Shown here: positions 41,008 to 56,791 of the stretch, in pieces | How positions within the stretch are numbered: the stretch's first letter is position 1 | How the letters are laid out: the number at the start of each line of letters is the position of its first letter | Origin: Desulfosoma sp. | GTDB taxonomy: Bacteria > Desulfobacterota > Syntrophobacteria > Syntrophobacterales > DSM-9756 | Direction of reading: 5' to 3' | NCBI GenBank assembly: GCA_037481835.1 | Contig: JBBFKW010000018.1 | Span: 49,322-106,112, forward strand | Length of the DNA: 56,791 nucleotides | The notes under the pieces: model-generated | The model's database searches: none | What the model was told of the DNA's origin: nothing | Seen by the model: only the letters and a program-made list of their open reading frames with translations | Translations under genes and position numbers: made by a program

Positions 41008-42759
41008 ATGATGACAGCGATGGATCAGCAGGGCAAAGGGGCCGATCGGCCTTCGCTCAAGCGGAACAAAATCGGGCAGCTCCTCCTCGAAGCGGGGTTG
41101 ATTGCGCCGAACGACCTGGAGCGCGCTCTGCAAGAGCAGAGCCGCAACGGGGATCGCTTGGGGACCATTCTCATTCGGCAGGGCATTATCGAAGAAAGGG
41201 TCCTCACCGAATTTCTGGCCAAGCAGTTTCGCGTGCCCACAGTTAATCCCGTGCGCCTTTCCGTGTCCAAGGACGCCCTGAAGATCGTCTCGCCGCAGGT
41301 CATGATCAAGTACCAGGTGTTTCCCTTGGGGCTCTCGGGAGCCACCCTGCACGTGGCCATATCCGATCCCGGCAATCTCTTCGCCATCGACGACATTCGA
41401 TTCATCACCCAAAAGAACATCCGCGTCCACGTCGCCCCGGAAAGCCTCATTAAGAAAGCCATCGAACAGGTCCACACCGCGGGCTCCGACGAAAGCCTGG
41501 AAGCCGTCATGGGCATGATCCGCGAAGAAGCGGATGTGGACGTGGTGGAAAGTTCCCAGGAAATCGACCTGGCCCATCTGGAAAACGCCGCCGGCGAAGC
41601 CCCCGTCGTCAAACTCGTCAACCTCATCCTCTTGGATGCCATCCGCAAGAAGGCAAGTGACATCCACGTGGAATGTTACGAGAAAGTCATGAGGGTGCGT
41701 TACCGCATCGACGGGCTTCTTTACGAAGTCATGCGGCCGCCCTATCAGCTGCGAAACGCCATCATTTCACGGCTCAAGATCATGAGCCGCCTGGACATTG
41801 CGGAACGGCGCCTTCCTCAAGACGGCCGCATCAAGCTCAAGAGCAAGAACGGCGAGATGGAATTCCGCGTCTCCGTTCTTCCCACCCTTTTCGGGGAAAA
41901 GGTCGTCCTGCGCCTTCTGGACAAATCCAACCTTCAGCTGGACATGACCAAGCTGGGATTCGAACCCAAGCAGCTGGACCTCTTCCGCGAAGCCATCTAT
42001 CGGCCCTACGGGATGGTGTTGGTCACCGGCCCTACGGGAAGCGGCAAGACGACCACCCTCTACAGCGCCCTTTCCGAACTGAACAAGATCAGCCACAACA
42101 TTTCCACGGCGGAAGACCCCGTGGAATTCAGCCTGCCGGGGATCAATCAGGTTCAGGTTCATGAAGCCATCGGATTGACTTTCGCGGCGGCGCTGCGCTC
42201 TTTCCTGCGCCAGGACCCGGACATCATCATGGTGGGCGAAATCCGCGACTTCGAAACGGCGGAAACGGCCATCAAGGCGGCGCTCACGGGGCACCTGGTC
42301 CTCAGCACCCTGCATACCAACGATGCCCCCAGCACCGTCAACCGCCTGCTCAACATGGGCATCGAGCCGTTCCTCGTGGCTTCCGCCGTCAATTTGGTGC
42401 TCGCCCAAAGGCTCGCCCGACGCGTGTGTCCCGAGTGCCGCGTCGCCGAGGACGTGCCGCCGGAGGCCCTGGTCGATTTAGGGGTTCGCGAAGAGGATGT
42501 GGGCACGTTCGTGTGCTACCGTGGTCGCGGCTGCCCGGCGTGTTCCAATACGGGCTATCGCGGCCGGATCGCCCTTTACGAAGTGATGGCCATGACGGAT
42601 GAAATCCGGGATTTAGTCCTGGTGGGAGCCTCGGCTGCGGAGATCAAGCGGGAAGCCATCCGCTTGGGGATGCTCACCCTGCGTCAAAGCGCCATCAATA
42701 AGCTCAAGGAAGGAATCACCTCCGTTGAAGAAGTGATCCGCGCGACGGTCAGAGACTAG
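41008..42759 (+). CDS. pilB: Type IV pilus assembly ATPase with an MshEN (c-di-GMP-binding) N-domain
   Basis: KIGQLL..AGLI/RLGTILIRQGII MshEN repeats, ASDIH, GPTGSGKTTT, LRQDPDIIMVGEIRD, CPEC/CPAC. Confidence 0.96.
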   Translation: MMTAMDQQGKGADRPSLKRNKIGQLLLEAGLIAPNDLERALQEQSRNGDRLGTILIRQGIIEERVLTEFLAKQFRVPTVNPVRLSVSKDALKIVSPQVMIKYQVFPLGLSGATLHVAISDPGNLFAIDDIRFITQKNIRVHVAPESLIKKAIEQVHTAGSDESLEAVMGMIREEADVDVVESSQEIDLAHLENAAGEAPVVKLVNLILLDAIRKKASDIHVECYEKVMRVRYRIDGLLYEVMRPPYQLRNAIISRLKIMSRLDIAERRLPQDGRIKLKSKNGEMEFRVSVLPTLFGEKVVLRLLDKSNLQLDMTKLGFEPKQLDLFREAIYRPYGMVLVTGPTGSGKTTTLYSALSELNKISHNISTAEDPVEFSLPGINQVQVHEAIGLTFAAALRSFLRQDPDIIMVGEIRDFETAETAIKAALTGHLVLSTLHTNDAPSTVNRLLNMGIEPFLVASAVNLVLAQRLARRVCPECRVAEDVPPEALVDLGVREEDVGTFVCYRGRGCPACSNTGYRGRIALYEVMAMTDEIRDLVLVGASAAEIKREAIRLGMLTLRQSAINKLKEGITSVEEVIRATVRD

Positions 42760-48154: not shown

Positions 48155-48580
48155 CCCCTTTGCCTCTGTGGGGGAAGACAAAATGTTTTCGCTTTTTCCT
48201 TAAACTCAATGGGGGATAGAAGGGTTTTAAATCTTCCATCCCGTGGGGGAGACCATCATGAACCTTTCCCTCTCCCCTGTGGCGGGCGCCAATAATTAAG
48301 CTTTTTTTCTCCCCTGTGGGGGGAGCCGAGAATTAAGGTCTCCCTCCCCCCTCAGTGGCGAGAGGCAAGAATCGAGGTTTCCCTCTCCCCATCGTGGGGG
48401 AAGAGACGAAAAAATAAACATTCCATCTCTCCTCTTCTGGGGGAGACCAAAATTAAACTTTCCTTCTCCCCTTTTTGGGGGAAGACGAAAATTAAACATC
48501 TCCTCTCCCCCCTCTGGGGAGAGCCGAAGATTAAACTTTCCCTCTCCCCCCTCTGGGGGGAGAGGGCAGGGTGAGGGGGG
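48155..48580. repeat. Degenerate ~39-bp tandem hairpin array ending in a complete BoxC-like element
   Basis: Unit anchors (ATTAAAC-like) at 48226, 48258, 48295, 48332, 48371, 48413, 48452, 48491 and 48530; each unit CCCTCTCCCC..TGGGGGAGA; full element at 48540-48580. Confidence 0.9.
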
Positions 48581-48594
48581 TTGAGAGAAAGGCG

Positions 48595-51384
48595 ATGGAT
48601 TACAAAAGCACGCTGAATCTTCCCAAGACCGATTTCCCCATGAAGGCCAATCTCACGCAGCGCGAACCCGAGCTGCTCGCCAAATGGGACCGCATGGACC
48701 TCTACCGGAAACTCCGTGAAGCCGCCTCAGGTCGCACGCCCTACATCCTCCATGACGGCCCTCCCTACGCCAACGGCCACATCCATTTGGGCACGGCCCT
48801 CAACAAGATCCTCAAGGACATGATCGTCAAGAGCCGCCAGATGAGCGGCTTTGACGCGGTCTATGTGCCGGGTTGGGACTGCCACGGCCTTCCCATCGAG
48901 CACCAGGTGGACAAGGAACTGGGCCCCAGGAAAAAAGCCATGAGCCAAGGAGAAATCCGGCGGCACTGTCGGGCCTACGCCGAAAAGTTCATCGACATCC
49001 AGCGGCGGGAATTCAAGCGTCTGGGTGTTCTCGGCGAATGGGACAATCCTTACCTCACCATGTCCTACGATTACGAAGCGACCATTGCCCGGGAACTGGG
49101 ACGCTTTTTCGAACGCGGGAGCGTCATCCGCAGCAAGAAGCCCATCTACTGGTGCTGCAGCTGCCGCACCGCCTTGGCGGAAGCCGAGGTGGAATACCAC
49201 GACCATGTGTCCCCGTCCATTTACGTGAAATTTCCCCTGAGCGACGAAAGCCGGGCCGCCTTCAAGGAATTCAAGGAAGATCCGGTCTTCGTGCTCATCT
49301 GGACGACAACCCCGTGGACCTTGCCGGCCAACCTGGCCGTCGCGCTCCATCCCGACTTCGACTATGCGGCCGTGCGCGTAGGGGGCGAAATCTGGATTCT
49401 TGCCGAAGGGCTGTTGGAAAGCTGCATGAAGGCCTTCGGGGTCGAAGGCTATGAAAAGGTGCGCACCCTTTCCAGCCGGGAACTGGAAGGGCTCTCGTGC
49501 CGCCATCCCTTCATCGACAGGGCGTCACGCATCGTGCTGGGGTCCCATGTGACGTTGGATGCCGGGACGGGCTGCGTTCATACGGCGCCGGGCCACGGCC
49601 GGGAAGACTACGACATGGCCTTGGAATACGGATTGGATGTGTATTCCCCCGTGGACGACGACGGCTGTTTTACCGCCGATGTGCCTTTCTTCGCGGGTCA
49701 ATTCGTCTTCCATGCGAACACGGCCGTCAATGAAAAGCTCCGGGAACTGGGAAGGCTCATCCTCGAAACGGACATTTCCCACAGCTACCCGCACTGCTGG
49801 CGCTGCAAGAAACCCGTCATCTTCCGGGCGACGGAACAGTGGTTCATTTCCATGGAAGCAAACGACCTTCGCAAAAAGGCGCTCCGGGCCATCGATGAAG
49901 TCCAATGGGTGCCGTCCTGGGGTCGGGACCGCATCTACCAGATGATCGAAAACCGGCCCGACTGGTGTATTTCCCGGCAGCGCTCCTGGGGGGTGCCCAT
50001 TACGGTGTTCAAGTGCCGAAAGTGCGGCCAGGTGTTGGCCTCTCGGGAGGTCTTCGACAAGGTCACGGCTCTTTTTGAAAAGGAAGGCGCCGATTGCTGG
50101 TTCGAGCGGGATGCGAAGGATTTAATGCCCGACGGGGCCGTATGCGGGGGATGCGGCGCGCAGGATTTTGAAAAGGAAATGGACATCCTGGATGTGTGGT
50201 TCGATTCCGGGGTATCCCATGCGGCGGTCCTGGAACGGCGGCCGTATCTACGGTCCCCCGCCGATCTGTACCTGGAGGGAAGCGACCAGCATCGCGGGTG
50301 GTTTCACTCATCCCTCCTGGCGTCCGTGGGAACGCGCGATCGAGCCCCCTACAAGGCGGTGCTCACCCATGGGTTCGTGGTGGACGGCCAAGGCTACAAG
50401 ATGTCCAAGTCCCTGGGAAACGTCATCGCTCCCGAGGAAATCATCAAGCAATACGGCGCGGAAATCCTGAGGCTCTGGGTTTCCGCCGAAGACTACCGGG
50501 ACGATATCCGCATTTCCCAGGATATCCTGAAGCGGCTCAGTGAGGCTTACCGGCGCATCCGAAACACATGGCGGTTTCTCCTGGGGAACCTCCATGATTT
50601 CGACCCGGCCCGACACATGGTGCCCGTGGAGCGCATGCCCGAACTGGACCGCTACGCCCTGCATACCCTGCAGAAAATCATTGAAAGGGTGCGGCGGGCC
50701 TACGACCGGTTCGAGTTCCACCGCGTCTATCATGCGGTCCACAACTACTGCACGGTGGACCTCAGCGCTTTTTACCTGGACATCCTCAAGGATCGGCTCT
50801 ACACGGCCCCGCCGGAAAGTGAGGAACGCCGATCGGCCCAAACCGTCTTCTATAGGATCCTCACGGCTTTATTAAAGCTCATGGCGCCCATCCTGTCCTT
50901 TACGGCGGAAGAGGCCTGGGCCCATCTTCCCGGGGATCACGGCGATTCGGTGCACCTGGAACCGTTCCCCGAACTGGATGAGAGCCTTGTGGACGAGGCT
51001 CTGGATGCGCGCTGGGAGAAAATTTCAAGGATTCGTGCCGATGTCAGCCGCGCTTTGGAAGCGGCCCGGCAGGCCAAAACCATCGGCCATCCTTTGGACG
51101 CCTGCGTGCGGTTGGCTTTGCCCGAGGCCTGGAAGGATGAGTTTTCCGAAGACGCCGAACTGTTCCGGACGGTTTTTATTGTGTCCCAGGTGATTCTGGA
51201 AGACGGCGCCCCTTCGCCGGACGCCGTGGACGGCCAGGACGTTCCCGGGCTCAAGGTTGTCGTGGAACGCGCGTTCGGGCACAAGTGCGAACGGTGCTGG
51301 GTCCTTTCGGACACCGTGGGGGCTTTTTCCGACCATCCCACGGTCTGCCGCCGCTGCCGCGCCGCTCTGGCCGCCATGGCGTAA
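48595..51384 (+). CDS. ileS: Isoleucine--tRNA ligase (type 1)
   Basis: [41 protein letters not shown]-terminal CERC..CRRC. Confidence 0.98.
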
Positions 51385-51664: not shown

Positions 51665-52201
51665 ATGACGGTTGAAAAACCCGCCGCTGAAAATCCTGTC
51701 CCCGACCGATCGAACCCTTTCATGCTGCTCTGTGTGGTCGTCCTGGCCGTGCTCGCCCTGGATCTGGCCACCAAAGCCTGGGTTCTTCGAACCCTTCCCC
51801 TCTACACCCAAAAGGAAATCATCCCGGGGTTTTTCAATCTCGTCCATGTGCGAAACACGGGGGTGGCGTTCAGCTTTTTTGCGGGAACCGACAGCCCGTG
51901 GCGCGTCCACATCCTGGTCGCTTTGACACTAGCGGCGCTTGGGGTGATTTTTTTTCTCTATCGGGAATGCCGGCGGGAAGAAAAGGCCAAGCGTTTCGCG
52001 CTCGGTCTCATTGCCGGAGGGGCTTTAGGCAATCTGGCGGACCGGCTGCGGTTTGGAAACGTGGTGGATTTTCTCGACTTTTACATCGGCCCCTACCACT
52101 GGCCCGCCTTCAACGTGGCGGATGTGGCCGTGACGGTCGGTGCCGCTCTGCTTCTCGTCGCCGTGCTTCGCGGGGAAAAAGATCATCCGCACCGTTCTTG
52201 A
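51665..52201 (+). CDS. lspA: Lipoprotein signal peptidase
   Basis: DLATK, VRNTGVAFS, GGALGNLADR, VVDFL, WPAFNVAD. Confidence 0.96.
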   Translation: MTVEKPAAENPVPDRSNPFMLLCVVVLAVLALDLATKAWVLRTLPLYTQKEIIPGFFNLVHVRNTGVAFSFFAGTDSPWRVHILVALTLAALGVIFFLYRECRREEKAKRFALGLIAGGALGNLADRLRFGNVVDFLDFYIGPYHWPAFNVADVAVTVGAALLLVAVLRGEKDHPHRS

Positions 52202-52582: not shown

Positions 52583-53263
52583 TCACTTTTCCTTTTCTTT
52601 TTTCAGTTGGACGGTGACAAAATCCGGCACCCATTGCTTTTCCCCGGCATCCCACACGTACTGGCGAACCACGACGGCATCCTTGTAGATGCGTTCCACA
52701 AGGCCGTCAGGAGTCACCGGCGTCCCTTCCTTGACGATGTAGCCTTTGCCGGAGGCGTCCTCGATGAGCGCCCGCGATCCCATCTCTCCCCAGAGGATGG
52801 CCTTGAGGCCGCGTTCCACTTCCCCAAGGCTCATTTTCTGTAAGGGGGTCAAAGGTAATCCCGCCGAAGGAATGGGCGACGGGGTGCCCTCCGCTTCGGG
52901 ATAGGTTTCCGTCACGGTCGTTTCCGGCTTGATGAAAGGAACGAAAGGATCCACAAGGCCCAAGGGCCGGTAATGAAAGGCATCGCTGAGGACGGCTTGA
53001 ACCATTTCTTTCCGGAGAGCAAGGGCCTGCTCCGGGCTGATTTCCGTATCCTCCGACGGCCGGGCCGCCGTGGCTGCGGGGGGCGGTGCGGACTCAAGGC
53101 CTTGAGTCTGCGATTCCGTGGGGACGGCGGCTGCCGAACCGAGCATGAAAAGAAAGGCCAAGGCGGCAGCCGCCGTCACGTGCCCCAGTTTGCCCGTCCG
53201 TGAAAGTCCCCACGGGTTCTCCATCCCAAAGCTTGTCCCATCACTGCGCCGTGTCTTTGCCAT
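52583..53263 (-). CDS. pilP: PilP-like type IV pilus protein (orphan, no lipobox Cys)
   Basis: DPFVPF, TPLQK, LKAILWG..ALIEDASGKGYIVKEGT..G.V..I..DAVVV; GGAGG SD before ATG 53263. Confidence 0.75.
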   Translation of the reverse strand: MAKTRRSDGTSFGMENPWGLSRTGKLGHVTAAAALAFLFMLGSAAAVPTESQTQGLESAPPPAATAARPSEDTEISPEQALALRKEMVQAVLSDAFHYRPLGLVDPFVPFIKPETTVTETYPEAEGTPSPIPSAGLPLTPLQKMSLGEVERGLKAILWGEMGSRALIEDASGKGYIVKEGTPVTPDGLVERIYKDAVVVRQYVWDAGEKQWVPDFVTVQLKKEKEK

Positions 53264-53446
53264 GTTCCCGTCCCTCCAGATCATGGGCCTGCAGGCGGCA
53301 GAAATCGTCCACACGGGTTACGGGCCCGGAGGTTCTCCCCTGCGCCGTTTTTTCTTTCTGTCACCAAAAGCTTTCCGATTCAACAAAAAGATCGTCGGAA
53401 AACCCCTATAAATTCCTATCGGCATTTTGCGCGAAAATCTAAAAAG

Positions 53447-53568: not shown

Positions 53569-53584
53569 TGGCACATGGATTGCT
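53569..53584 (+). promoter_or_regulatory. sigma54 (-24/-12) promoter of pilA
   Basis: TGGCAC-ATGGA-TTGCT matches TGGCAC-N5-TTGCW. Confidence 0.9.
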
Positions 53585-53756: not shown

Positions 53757-54209
53757 ATGCTGCTCAAAATGAAAGAAAGCAAAGGCTTCACCCTGGTGGA
53801 ACTCATGATCGTCGTGGCCATCATCGGCATCCTGGCCGCAGTGGCCGTACCGTTCTACCAGCGCTACGTAAAGAAAGCTCGCCTTACGAGCCTCGTTTTT
53901 CCCGGATTGCACGCGATTCAGAACAGCATCTCTAGTTATTATAGTGTGAAAGGTTCAGCTCCTGATTTGTCAGATGACGATATTCTAGAATCAATGGCAA
54001 GAGACGCTGACACGGCTTGTTTTGACGTGGAACAGGGAGATAGTACCCTTTCCCTTAAGATCACGCTAAATACTAGTAGAAATGCGAGCAAATGCGGTCC
54101 TCTGGCAAACTTGACGCCCAATTCCTTTAGCGTTGTCGCCACAGAAAATGCAGGAAAGCTGACCTGGTCATTTAGCGGTGGTCTCGCGAAGGAATTGGGA
54201 TTAGAGTAG
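53757..54209 (+). CDS. pilA: Type IVa major pilin
   Basis: Class III signal [42 protein letters not shown]. Confidence 0.95.
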
Positions 54210-54233
54210 GTGGTCTTTACAGTATCGTAGCAT

Positions 54234-54269
54234 TTACCCCTAGGGGCTAGCGGCCACCCCTAGGGGTAA
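54234..54269 (+). terminator. Hairpin after pilA (attenuator or mRNA stabiliser)
   Basis: TTACCCCTAGGGG-N10-CCCCTAGGGGTAA; no U-tract. Confidence 0.6.
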
Positions 54270-54288
54270 GCCGTGATGTGAGAGACCC

Positions 54289-56694
54289 ATGTGCAAAAAC
54301 CAATTAATTCAGCTTGGCAGAATTTTTGTCGTTCTATGCCTGATATTTTCAGCCTACTCCAACACATTGACTTCCCCCCCCGTTCTTGATGATTTTCACA
54401 GTTTTGTTACTAACCCTTCAACTCGCGTTGAAAAAATTGATACTGAAATGTTGGGTAAGTTAGCCGGATCCTATTTTGGCGTGTGGCGATTTTTGCCCAT
54501 GCTAAGCTTGGCTTTTGATTTTTGGTGGGGCGACGGAAAAATTATCGCATTTCACGTATCAAATATTATCATTCATATCTTGTGCTTCATTTGTTGTTAC
54601 TGGTTTTCTGGCGCCCTAGTGAATGTTGCTGCAACGGGATCGAGGAGTGGACCCTATTCTGAATCTCTGGTGAGATCATTTACGCTCGCCGTTTCAAGTT
54701 TGTGGGCTCTTCACCCAGTTCAGACCAGTGCTGTCACATACATTGTACAAAGAATGGCATCCCTGCAGGCTTTATTTTTCTTCGCTGCATGTGCGGCTTA
54801 TATTCATTTCAAGCTGGCTTGGCAGGAGCGGCGTAAAATCCGACAGGTCTCTTGGGCTCTGGTCTGTGCGGTTTCTTCCCTCGGCGCCTTCTTGTCAAAA
54901 GAAAACTCAGCGATGCTTCCAGTGGTTTTTTTGTTGATAGAACTCTGGTTCTTTAGGTGTTGGACATTTCAGAGCTGTGCTCGTAAGTTATTTATATTGC
55001 TCTCAAATCCGAGGTGGATGGCTTGGATTGCCATCGGCACTCTCAGCTTGGGCCTTATGTCCGTTACCGCTGTTCAACATTTTGCTTCCGGCTATAATGG
55101 GCGACACTTCACCATGACGGAAAGGCTCTTGACGGAATGTCGCATTGTTCTCCAATATGTTTATGCCATCATCGTCCCAAACCCGGGGAATCTTTCTCTT
55201 GAGCACGATGTTGTTGTATCCAAGAGCCTTGTGTCACCGCCAACAACGCTCATAAGTGTTCTTGCCATTGCGTTCTTTGTGGCCCTTTCCCTAAGGTTTC
55301 GTGGTTCCTACCTCATGTTTTCATTTGGATTAATTTGGTTTCTCGTGAATCTTATTATTGAATCCACTATAGTCCCTCTGGAGCTTAAATTTGACCATAG
55401 AATGTACCTGCCTTCTTTTGGCTTGATTCTTAGTCTCGTTGAGATTGTTCGACAGTTCGGAGCGCGACTTTGCCTGCCTTTCTCTGCTAAGGACCGTCAA
55501 AAGGTGGTGTGGTCGGGTTTGGCCGTAGCGTGCGCCATTCTTGCCTTGCTGAGTTTTACTCGTAATGAAGATTGGCAGGACATATTGACCATTAACCGAG
55601 ATGCTGTCCATAAGGCGCCTGAACACCCGCGGGCTCACGCAAATTACGCGGTAGCCCTGTCGAGGGCTGGTCGATATGATGAGGCGATCTATGAGGCGAA
55701 AAAGGCTATAGAACTAGGGCGTAAAGGGCTTGAATCTCATTTCGTTGCGGCTGGCATTGTCCTCAGTGCTTATATGCACCAGGGACGTTGGGACGAGGCC
55801 ATTCGGGAGGGAGAAAAGCTGTTTGAAGAAAGACCCGAGAAATTCGATGCGATGTCGTTGCCTGTGTTTTGTTTGAAGCTTGCTGAATGTTATCGGATGA
55901 CAAAAAACTATTATATGGCATACAGGTACGCAATGTTAGCACTAGACATTATCCAGAAGAATGAACGACTCAGGCAGGAACAAAAATGGGTATATTTCGT
56001 ACTGGAATCAGTCATTACCGATGCCTCCACCGAGGATGTGGATGTGGATGGGGATGGCTCACCGGATCCAGGGAATATGTCGTTGGATGAATGGGTGGCT
56101 CTAACTTTATACCGGGCGGGCGATTATGATGGAGCCAAAATTTTTGGTGGGAAGGTAGTGGGAAGCTCATATATATCAAGAATCCTGCATGAAATAGATA
56201 TCTACGAGAGAAGGAGCATTCTACAGGGTAAGCAATGGGCTATGGATACTAAGGAATGGACAAATGGGGGTCATGCGGCGGATATCATTCTACGGATCTC
56301 TCACGCTATTCTGAATAAGCCGGTCCTTAAGACTCTAATACCTTTGGGGGAAAAGCTAGTCGCATGGTGTGTTAAAATAGATCCGTATAACTTTTATGTA
56401 TATACTCTCCAGGGGTGGTATGCTTTTGAAAAGGGGGATGTAGACGCGGTGGCCAAGGCGAAGCAGGCTGTGGAACTGGCGCCACAGTCGGCCAAGGCGT
56501 GGATTGCCCTGGGCTTCTTTGAGCAGCGGGCGGGGCGGCTGGAAAATGCGCTGACGGCTTTTCGCCAGACCTTGGAACTCTACCCGGGCTATCCCAAGCG
56601 CCATATCCTCAAAGACCTCATGGCCCAGCTGGAGTCCCAGATTCATGCGCAGAACTCGGAAAGTTCCACGATCGCCCAGGCCGCCCTGCACTGA
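54289..56694 (+). CDS. TMTC-like multi-TM GT-C glycosyltransferase with C-terminal TPR repeats
   Basis: PVLDD acidic loop after TM1, FHVSNIIIH, LWALHPVQTSAVTYIVQR, SKEN, DHRMYLPS, RNEDW, then TPRs. Confidence 0.8.
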   Translation: MCKNQLIQLGRIFVVLCLIFSAYSNTLTSPPVLDDFHSFVTNPSTRVEKIDTEMLGKLAGSYFGVWRFLPMLSLAFDFWWGDGKIIAFHVSNIIIHILCFICCYWFSGALVNVAATGSRSGPYSESLVRSFTLAVSSLWALHPVQTSAVTYIVQRMASLQALFFFAACAAYIHFKLAWQERRKIRQVSWALVCAVSSLGAFLSKENSAMLPVVFLLIELWFFRCWTFQSCARKLFILLSNPRWMAWIAIGTLSLGLMSVTAVQHFASGYNGRHFTMTERLLTECRIVLQYVYAIIVPNPGNLSLEHDVVVSKSLVSPPTTLISVLAIAFFVALSLRFRGSYLMFSFGLIWFLVNLIIESTIVPLELKFDHRMYLPSFGLILSLVEIVRQFGARLCLPFSAKDRQKVVWSGLAVACAILALLSFTRNEDWQDILTINRDAVHKAPEHPRAHANYAVALSRAGRYDEAIYEAKKAIELGRKGLESHFVAAGIVLSAYMHQGRWDEAIREGEKLFEERPEKFDAMSLPVFCLKLAECYRMTKNYYMAYRYAMLALDIIQKNERLRQEQKWVYFVLESVITDASTEDVDVDGDGSPDPGNMSLDEWVALTLYRAGDYDGAKIFGGKVVGSSYISRILHEIDIYERRSILQGKQWAMDTKEWTNGGHAADIILRISHAILNKPVLKTLIPLGEKLVAWCVKIDPYNFYVYTLQGWYAFEKGDVDAVAKAKQAVELAPQSAKAWIALGFFEQRAGRLENALTAFRQTLELYPGYPKRHILKDLMAQLESQIHAQNSESSTIAQAALH

Positions 56695-56791
56695 GAAGGC
56701 CTCTCCCCTCTCCCATCCTTTGGGGGTGGTGCCCAACCCAATGCTGTTGACTTAAGCATTTTTAAGCTTTTCCCTCTTTCCTGAGCACCAT

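Follow-up and report, generated by a model that had tools for sequence, protein, structure and literature searches.

The last part of a 56,791-nt stretch of Desulfosoma sp. contig JBBFKW010000018.1 (the window) carries pilA, the gene for a type IVa prepilin, followed directly by a gene for a multi-spanning membrane protein that ends in tetratricopeptide repeats (TPRs). From the predicted fold, the gene order and comparison with published systems, we consider it probable that this protein glycosylates the pilin. The pair is best labeled a TfpW-like pilin glycosylation cassette, of a design that would be already known and not a new class. Pilin glycosylation is the best reading because a GT-C fold is joined to a TPR tail, because the gene stands directly after the major pilin gene, and because this pairing is conserved across phyla. 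A sequence-only reading of the same DNA had proposed a candidate pilin glycosylation system built around a bacterial homolog of the TMTC proteins; the system itself is upheld by the fold, the tail and the conserved pilin adjacency, whereas the TMTC family label turned out to be wrong. The cassette and its enzyme comprise the following features.

53569..53584 (+): candidate sigma-54-type promoter, TGGCAC-N5-TTGCT, ~185 nt before the start of pilA
53757..54209 (+): pilA, type IVa prepilin of 150 amino acids (aa; 10-aa leader plus 140 aa mature) with two Cys; the N_methyl and prepilin models match
54212..54287 (+): stem-loop, its core a 13-bp stem from two copies of CCCCTAGGGG
54289..56694 (+): open reading frame (ORF) of the GT-C/TPR enzyme, 801 aa, from the first ATG of the open frame
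54289..55590 (+): predicted GT-C fold glycosyltransferase domain, residues 1-434, with 11 transmembrane (TM) helices
54388..54393 (+): D34-D35, putative GT-C catalytic DD(x) motif, within predicted periplasmic loop 1
55570..56694 (+): C-terminal TPR region, residues ~428-801, predicted to be periplasmic
56035..56067 (+): DVDVDGDGSPD, two overlapping DxDxDG-type calcium-loop-like motifs between the TPR blocks
56738..56791 (no strand assigned): end of an insertion sequence (IS) copy, which lies 43 nt after the enzyme stop codon and breaks the assembly
Enzyme residues 33-39: LDDFHSF, containing D34 and D35
Enzyme residues 142-155: HPVQTSAVTYIVQR
Enzyme residues 203-206: SKEN
Enzyme residues 369-376: DHRMYLPS
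Enzyme residues 585-593: DVDGDGSPD

The sequence-only reading had described a multi-TM protein with the DD pair, HPVQTSAVTYIVQR, SKEN and DHRMYLPS, then TPRs and the DVDGDGSPD loop, and all of these are present in that order. The alignment argues that the motifs are not due to chance, because D34, D35, N92, H96, P143, Q154, R155, K204 and R279, as well as R285, Y290, P297, E358, S359, H370, R371, Y373 and P375, are the same residue in all 34 diverse homologs. Pfam and NCBIfam searches with the full protein and with its N-terminal 434 aa returned TPRs only (Pfam TPR_2, TPR_16, TPR_17 and TPR_19, at about residues 428-520 and 695-780), and Pfam was empty for residues 1-434 even at E<=10. Between the TPR blocks, D-x-[DN]-x-D-G occurs at the same place in 15 of 26 close homologs and in 14 of 42 pilin-linked full-length homologs, and this loop may bind calcium.

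The fold of the N-terminal domain was modeled with AlphaFold2 from the alignment of 34, giving for residues 1-434 a confidence score (pLDDT) of 91.8, a predicted TM-score (pTM) of 0.91 and 11 membrane-length helices, with D34/D35 between model helices 3-26 and 85-117. If the Lys/Arg-bearing N-terminus is cytoplasmic, five periplasmic loops would hold the conserved motifs and the TPR tail would be periplasmic. In an all-against-all structural search of 48,161 representatives of the PDB, the first 20 places were all taken by GT-C enzymes. The search values were highest for ArnT (5f15, 18.3), Pmt1-Pmt2 (6p2r, 18.2), AglB (3waj, 18.0), STT3 (6s7t, 17.6), Pmt4 (9e61, 17.1) and PglB (5ogl, 15.4), followed, down to 9.1, by ALG12, AftA, AftB, PIG-U, AftD, ALG3, DPY19, ALG9, ALG6, PimE and EmbA/B; the first unrelated chain scored 7.0. 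Foldseek placed the same families on top, with TM-scores of 0.41-0.51 and weak E-values. The solved GT-C enzymes are only 7-11% identical in sequence to the window enzyme, and their matched parts are without the TPR tail. Similarly, a profile of the N-terminal domain found nothing relevant among PDB sequences (one match, at E 0.75). The model thus assigns to the enzyme a GT-C fold with a DD motif in the first extracytoplasmic loop.

By analogy, the closest known system appears to be the pilA-tfpW cassette of Pseudomonas and not TMTC. TfpW is the pilin D-arabinofuranosyl transferase of Pseudomonas aeruginosa group IV / P. paraeruginosa (Pa5196, PA7). The accessible part of the preprint that describes it (as GenBank AAM52060.1) reports a protein of 11 TM helices for which the DDX motif of loop 1 is essential, with conserved regions in periplasmic loops 1-5 and a periplasmic TPR domain; the gene lies immediately downstream of pilA, the protein is best modeled on ArnT, and pilA-linked homologs are named from Azotobacter, Acinetobacter, Teredinibacter, Pseudomonas indica and Kingella (10.1101/2020.04.19.049825). 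The sequence-only reading had treated TfpW as a different kind of enzyme, a separation that this architecture contradicts. The window shares with the TfpW cassette the 11 TM helices, the DD(x) motif of loop 1, a TPR tail predicted to be periplasmic and the place after pilA, and also ArnT as the top structure, the conserved loops 1-5 and a terminator-type stem-loop after pilA. The two differ in length (646 aa for TfpW, 801 aa here, with an extra DxDxDG-bearing segment between the TPR blocks) and in host, Pseudomonas for one and a member of the Thermodesulfobacteriota for the other. They also differ in the TfpW motif YX6PFX7P of periplasmic loop 4, of which the window enzyme has only the first half, Y290-X6-P297, as an invariant feature; P297 is followed by N298, and position +9 is H306 and not Pro. 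There is no DprE1-type ALO domain in the 99.4%-complete genome, so the sugar added here is probably not D-arabinofuranose.

The pairing of enzyme and pilin was followed through the homologs. A word-indexed search returned 587 matches, the best 88% identical and the next about 50% (Desulfacinum, Desulfosoma and Syntrophobacteraceae), most of them named 'tetratricopeptide repeat protein'. Among 79 related Thermodesulfobacteriota loci drawn from species-representative genomes, 53 have a same-strand prepilin gene upstream, its start 537-777 nt before the match, and the unlinked loci are mostly the most distant matches; among loci holding at least 800 nt of upstream sequence, linkage rises to 51 of 67. 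An upstream prepilin was also found in 16 of 34 loci of a Gammaproteobacteria sample, in which strands and coordinates were read by eye. The pilin-then-enzyme order recurs in 50 of 75 Gamma- and Betaproteobacterial loci (including Acinetobacter, Dokdonella, Methylobacter and Novimethylophilus), a set biased by its query alignment, which was built from pilin-adjacent loci. The family profile likewise finds pilA-adjacent Gamma- and Betaproteobacterial genes of 617-716 aa at about E 1e-100, Acinetobacter included. In a FastTree phylogeny that covers 177 N-terminal domains, one row having been removed because of stop codons, the window enzyme falls in a clade of 34 rows with local support of 99, and all 34 are pilin-linked.

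Many genomes carry at least two tandem copies of the GT-C/TPR gene after the pilin (for example G114, G122, G233, G033 and G362), and one Gammaproteobacterial metagenome-assembled genome (G001) has five copies over four contigs. In a Ca. Electronema sp. locus (L068, 5285-10127), pilA is followed by two tandem homologs.

The pattern TGGCACNNNNNTTGCW, which we take to be the sigma-54 consensus, matched once in the 56.8-kb window, before pilA, with 0.08 matches expected by chance. The pilA reading frame begins at ATG 53757, with an AGGAGG ribosome-binding site 6 nt before it, and its product has a G|FTLVELM cleavage site. The spacer between pilA and the enzyme gene is 79 nt, and most of it is filled by the stem-loop (minimum free energy -39.2 kcal/mol; z = -3.68 against dinucleotide shuffles), the 3' arm of which extends to the weak ribosome-binding site of the enzyme gene. 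Of 54 loci, 50 have a similarly stable fold (z < -2 against mononucleotide shuffles) in the 90 nt that follow the pilin stop codon. The stem-loop at 54212..54287 is not a canonical intrinsic terminator, because no T-run follows it. According to the accessible text of one study, pilin-accessory cassettes commonly have a terminator behind the pilin gene, which attenuates expression of the accessory gene (PMC11841053). A stem-loop or terminator between pilin and accessory gene, as in the Pseudomonas cassettes of the group I, III, IV and V type, is present here as well.

pilA is the only full-length PilA-like gene of the genome, in which four other matches cover the N-terminus alone, and its product has homologs in the pilins encoded before the related enzyme genes. 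The Ser/Thr count that the sequence-only reading had given for this pilin, 22 in the last 96 residues, is exact. This content is ordinary among co-located pilins: the Ser/Thr fraction of the C-domain is 0.21, within a range of 0.13-0.32 over 54 such pilins. The three sequons NTS, NAS and NLT that had been pointed out are present as well, at mature N95, N99 and N108, but they do not appear to be conserved, since their columns are variable or gap-rich in the 54 pilins and each pilin has between 0 and 4 sequons. A D-A-D-T motif at mature residues 73-76 (window ~54003-54014) is kept amid the variable C-domain. Over the 54 pilins, D73 is found in 89%, A74 in 87% and Ser or Thr at position 76 in 89%, making T76 a candidate for a conserved modification site. 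Ser or Thr is also kept at T34 in 81% of the co-located pilins and at S35 in 72%.

Cassette divergence is unusually fast. In three genomes of the same genus IleS is 85-90% identical, whereas the enzyme of this locus, which the coordinates, where available, place within a few kb of ileS, is only 47-50% identical. This is no higher than the identity to the enzyme of another genus of the family, whose IleS is 81-82% identical. In the pilin, the N-terminal 53 residues have 35-48 identical positions across six relatives with a pilin in reach, and the C-domain has 27-55 of 87 identical to six relatives of the family, two of them of the same genus. The divergence is consistent with cassette alleles that have long been diverse or have been exchanged, as in the Pseudomonas pilin groups. 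Pilin glycosylation is reported to block pilus phages in Pseudomonas, and phage pressure may likewise lie behind the divergence seen here. The G+C content of the cassette is 0.475, against 0.60 for the window; as sole evidence of recent transfer it was rejected, the enzyme genes of relatives being also at 0.475-0.54 in six of seven cases.

The neighborhoods of related loci suggest where a sugar donor could come from. GT2 genes overlap, follow or precede the enzyme gene in relatives, and they resemble, below curated cut-offs, AglJ, PpgS, PgfS and ArnC, which are polyprenyl-phosphate hexose synthases. MprF-like or ABC membrane proteins, FkbM methyltransferases, B12/radical-SAM enzymes and a DegT aminotransferase are also encoded beside the enzyme gene in relatives. 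In sequence terms, these neighbors fit a three-part scheme of lipid-sugar synthase, flippase and GT-C transferase. From the fold and the GT2 genes beside relatives, the window enzyme would be expected to use a polyprenyl-phosphate-linked donor. In Acinetobacter tianfuensis (L211, 2001-6962), pilA, a GT-C/TPR gene (654 aa), an AglJ/PpgS-like GT2 gene and an ABC exporter gene follow one another with overlapping stops and starts, a compact candidate for a three-part pilin glycosylation operon. In Desulfacinum hydrothermale, an STT3-like gene lies directly after the pilA-enzyme pair.

The resemblance to TMTC1-4 appears real at the level of overall build and of the GT-C/PMT clan, whereas membership of the TMTC/DUF1736 family is not demonstrable from the sequence. 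According to the accessible part of a TMTC study, these proteins have an 11-TM GT-C domain followed by TPRs, with DD and SHKSYRP in loop EL1, RxD in EL2, KE(T/Q)xxT in EL3, DW in EL4 and ERxxY in EL5, and the equivalents of D34-D35 are TMTC motif M1 and ArnT D55/E56 (PMC7801869). The window enzyme has the same build, with its TPRs in the periplasm instead of the lumen. It has invariant counterparts in DD (EL1), KE(N) (EL3) and (E/D)HR-x-Y (EL5), loops that match M1, M4 and M7; the TMTC-like motifs of the sequence-only reading stand to this extent, but SHKSYRP, RxD and DW are not reproduced and read WRFLP, QRM and HD. TMTC acceptors are cadherins, with dolichyl-phosphate mannose (Dol-P-Man) as donor.

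Profile comparisons agree with this distinction. PF08409 (TMTC_DUF1736) has no match to the window protein at E<=10 and none in 34 family members at E<=1. It also has no match in 401 Gammaproteobacterial genomes, 129 of which carry the family, a weak negative because the control genomes were silent too. The proposed bacterial TMTC homolog is linked to TMTC only through the motif resemblance at clan level and a protein-language-model search, in which a eukaryotic DUF1736 cluster came at rank 18 with a score of 0.92; the top of that search was held by bacterial clusters with partial PMT_2 annotation (27-30% of members) at 0.98. The window protein has no match to PMT (PF02366) or PMT_2 (PF13231), and among the 34 members one matches PMT (E 2.5e-4), one PMT_2 (E 0.008) and two DUF6056. 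TfpO/PilO and PglL (Wzy_C) are more distant still: tfpO too stands directly after pilA and its product glycosylates the pilin, but these enzymes belong to an unrelated family that uses undecaprenyl-diphosphate (Und-PP)-oligosaccharide donors and is without GT-C fold or TPRs.

These lines of evidence are consistent with the following working model. A sigma-54-type promoter would drive pilA, and the stem-loop after it would pass only part of transcription or translation to the enzyme gene. The enzyme, in the inner membrane, would most likely take a sugar from a polyprenyl-phosphate-linked donor at the periplasmic face, using the loops of D34/D35, K204-E205 and R371-Y373 in sugar transfer. The sugar would be moved to Ser/Thr of the membrane-anchored pilin before polymerization, as by TfpW in Pseudomonas group IV.

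Several findings weigh against this model. The likeness to TfpW rests on architecture and synteny taken from the published description and not on the sequence of TfpW. In this respect, a scan with the Gammaproteobacterial alignment (75 loci) returned no locus from P. aeruginosa or P. paraeruginosa, and a scan with the Acinetobacter tianfuensis homolog returned five loci, none from the species named in the TfpW preprint. The family is also huge: at E<=0.001 an exhaustive search with the N-terminal-domain profile matched 100,418 cluster representatives, and at E<=1e-30 it matched 24,905. It is found in 129 of 400 evenly sampled Gammaproteobacterial genomes (a tally that includes three unpublished genomes, G040, G142 and G297), often in multiple copies. 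In the tree, 56 of the 177 rows are without an upstream pilin and the linkage needs at least 12 changes, and the genome's own paralog (C11, 678 aa, 31% identical) adjoins a TonB-dependent receptor gene, without a pilin.

Co-variation of the two proteins is a further point. The sequence-only reading had the TPRs recognize the co-inherited pilin and looked to a co-phylogeny of pilin and enzyme for support. Pilin C-domain and enzyme distances do correlate (42 pairs, r 0.40-0.46), but no TPR-specific signal is left after control for the TM part (partial r = -0.03, permutation p = 0.66), whereas for the TM part itself the partial r with the pilin C-domain distance is still 0.25 (p = 0.001). Because the distances come close to saturation (0.69) and the rows are related to one another, these values neither prove nor exclude recognition by the TPRs.

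Donor supply and competing routes also count against the model. No donor-synthesis gene is linked to the window cassette. The polyprenol-phosphate sugar synthase that the sequence-only reading looked for has GT2 candidates in the genome, but they are unlinked to the cassette; the best, C11:156737-157387, is 35% identical to the GT2 that follows the L047 homolog. The absence of a linked donor gene is due to the assembly, which breaks off at an IS copy and leaves 97 nt of contig beyond the enzyme stop codon. The final 53-54 nt match the termini of contigs C17, C38 and C11 at 100% identity and the internal C5:36643-36697 at 96%; C38 (1520 nt) encodes a 435-aa DDE_Tnp_1 transposase. These results indicate that the contig ends inside a multi-copy IS. 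In addition, five Wzy_C proteins encoded away from the cassette, or an STT3-like enzyme with a WWDHG motif elsewhere in the genome, could glycosylate the pilin instead. Contig C2 (G000:C2:1-19606, L088) starts with genes for a ComP-like minor pilin, PilW-like minor pilins and two PilY1-like giants (1688 and 1269 aa), followed by a 747-aa STT3/PglB-like protein with a WWDHG motif, possibly an N-glycosylation enzyme beside type IV pilus tip genes. This start resembles Desulfacinum loci, with their minor pilin, PilW-like, PilY1 and STT3-like genes. Joining C2 to the end of the window was considered and rejected as an unsupported adjacency, only 21 nt of IS-end repeat being common to both.

The size of the family bears directly on the possibility that the enzyme is a general periplasmic protein O-glycosyltransferase of PMT/TMTC type, acting on many envelope substrates with the pilin at most one of them, the gene order then reflecting co-regulation. 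The many copies and the many members without a pilin neighbor speak for it, as do the JGI label 'protein O-mannosyl-transferase' on 13 of 120 listed homologs and the TPR tails of TMTCs, which are said to serve several substrates. We nevertheless judge it unlikely, since the enzyme's own clade is pilin-linked throughout, the cassette shares one promoter and stem-loop architecture, and the flanking IleS diverges far more slowly than either the enzyme or the pilin. A GT-C enzyme that acts on a non-protein acceptor (lipid A or lipopolysaccharide, a cell-surface polysaccharide or peptidoglycan) and lies near pilA by way of a variable surface-structure island is less likely again: the protein-modifying GT-Cs Pmt1/2, Pmt4, AglB, STT3 and PglB score equally well in the structural search, and the TPR tail and the place after pilA match the sole characterized pilin transferase of this build.

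Least probable, and by our estimate hardly to be expected, is a non-catalytic pilus assembly or stability factor, whose TPR tail would chaperone pilins or secretin in the manner of PilF/PilW/Tgl or TfpY while the membrane domain served as an anchor. Some pilin accessory proteins do act in assembly and not in glycosylation, according to the accessible part of one report (PMC11841053), and the TPR part has weak, sub-threshold NCBIfam matches to Tgl and PilW. These matches reach 34 bits, however, against cut-offs of 225 and 154, and the GT-C catalytic-type residues, invariant in the 34 diverse homologs, would be needless in an anchor. Modification of the pilin by a TfpW-like enzyme is the reading we retain.

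The cassette is preceded by the following genes in the final stretch of the window.

48571..51384: ileS, before lspA
51665..52201: lspA
52583..53314 (-): conserved unannotated ORF of 243 aa, between lspA and pilA

The 243-aa ORF matches PilP only weakly and below cut-off (E 0.005), and its position between lspA and pilA is filled in three other loci (L001, L005 and L012) by a Pfam-negative ORF. A PilB-type assembly ATPase (T2SSE plus MshEN domain) is encoded at 41008-42756 (+), 11 kb upstream of pilA, so pilus machinery genes share the region.

A counterpart of the cassette has been described in cable bacteria. The accessible text on Ca. Electrothrix/Electronema reports, in all clades, a cluster of 'PilA, two sugar-modifying enzymes and TPR proteins' (PMC10580974). 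This cluster has the same family and gene order as the window cassette, but in the same text the TPR proteins are taken as protein-protein interaction modules and not as glycosyltransferases (PMC10580974). We found no title or abstract that assigns a GT-C pilin glycosyltransferase to the Thermodesulfobacteriota, in a search that left subscription journals largely outside.

A broader reading joins several of these elements. The ~800-aa enzymes of the Syntrophobacteria clade may form a distinct lineage of protein O-glycosyltransferases unmodeled by Pfam, a bacterial group that is sister to the animal TMTCs instead of being derived from TfpW. They would carry a calcium-binding DxDxDG insert in their TPR tail and place a sugar other than D-arabinofuranose on the major pilin, with the cassette exchanged or diversified among closely related species under pilus-phage pressure. 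As a whole we put this forward tentatively, as a doubtful but not negligible prospect; if it were true, glycosylated pili would be the rule in syntrophs, sulfate reducers and cable bacteria.

Adhesion, motility and claims of electron transfer are the reasons for studying the type IV pili of cable bacteria and of Thermodesulfobacteriota that are syntrophs or sulfate reducers, and their pilins are usually assumed to be bare. If the pilin is glycosylated as proposed, these pili would be sugar-coated, which would alter their surface chemistry, their role as phage receptors and the way in which their mass and structure are read. Part of a very large family that is annotated only by its tetratricopeptide repeats and whose membrane domain is without a Pfam model would then also gain a function.

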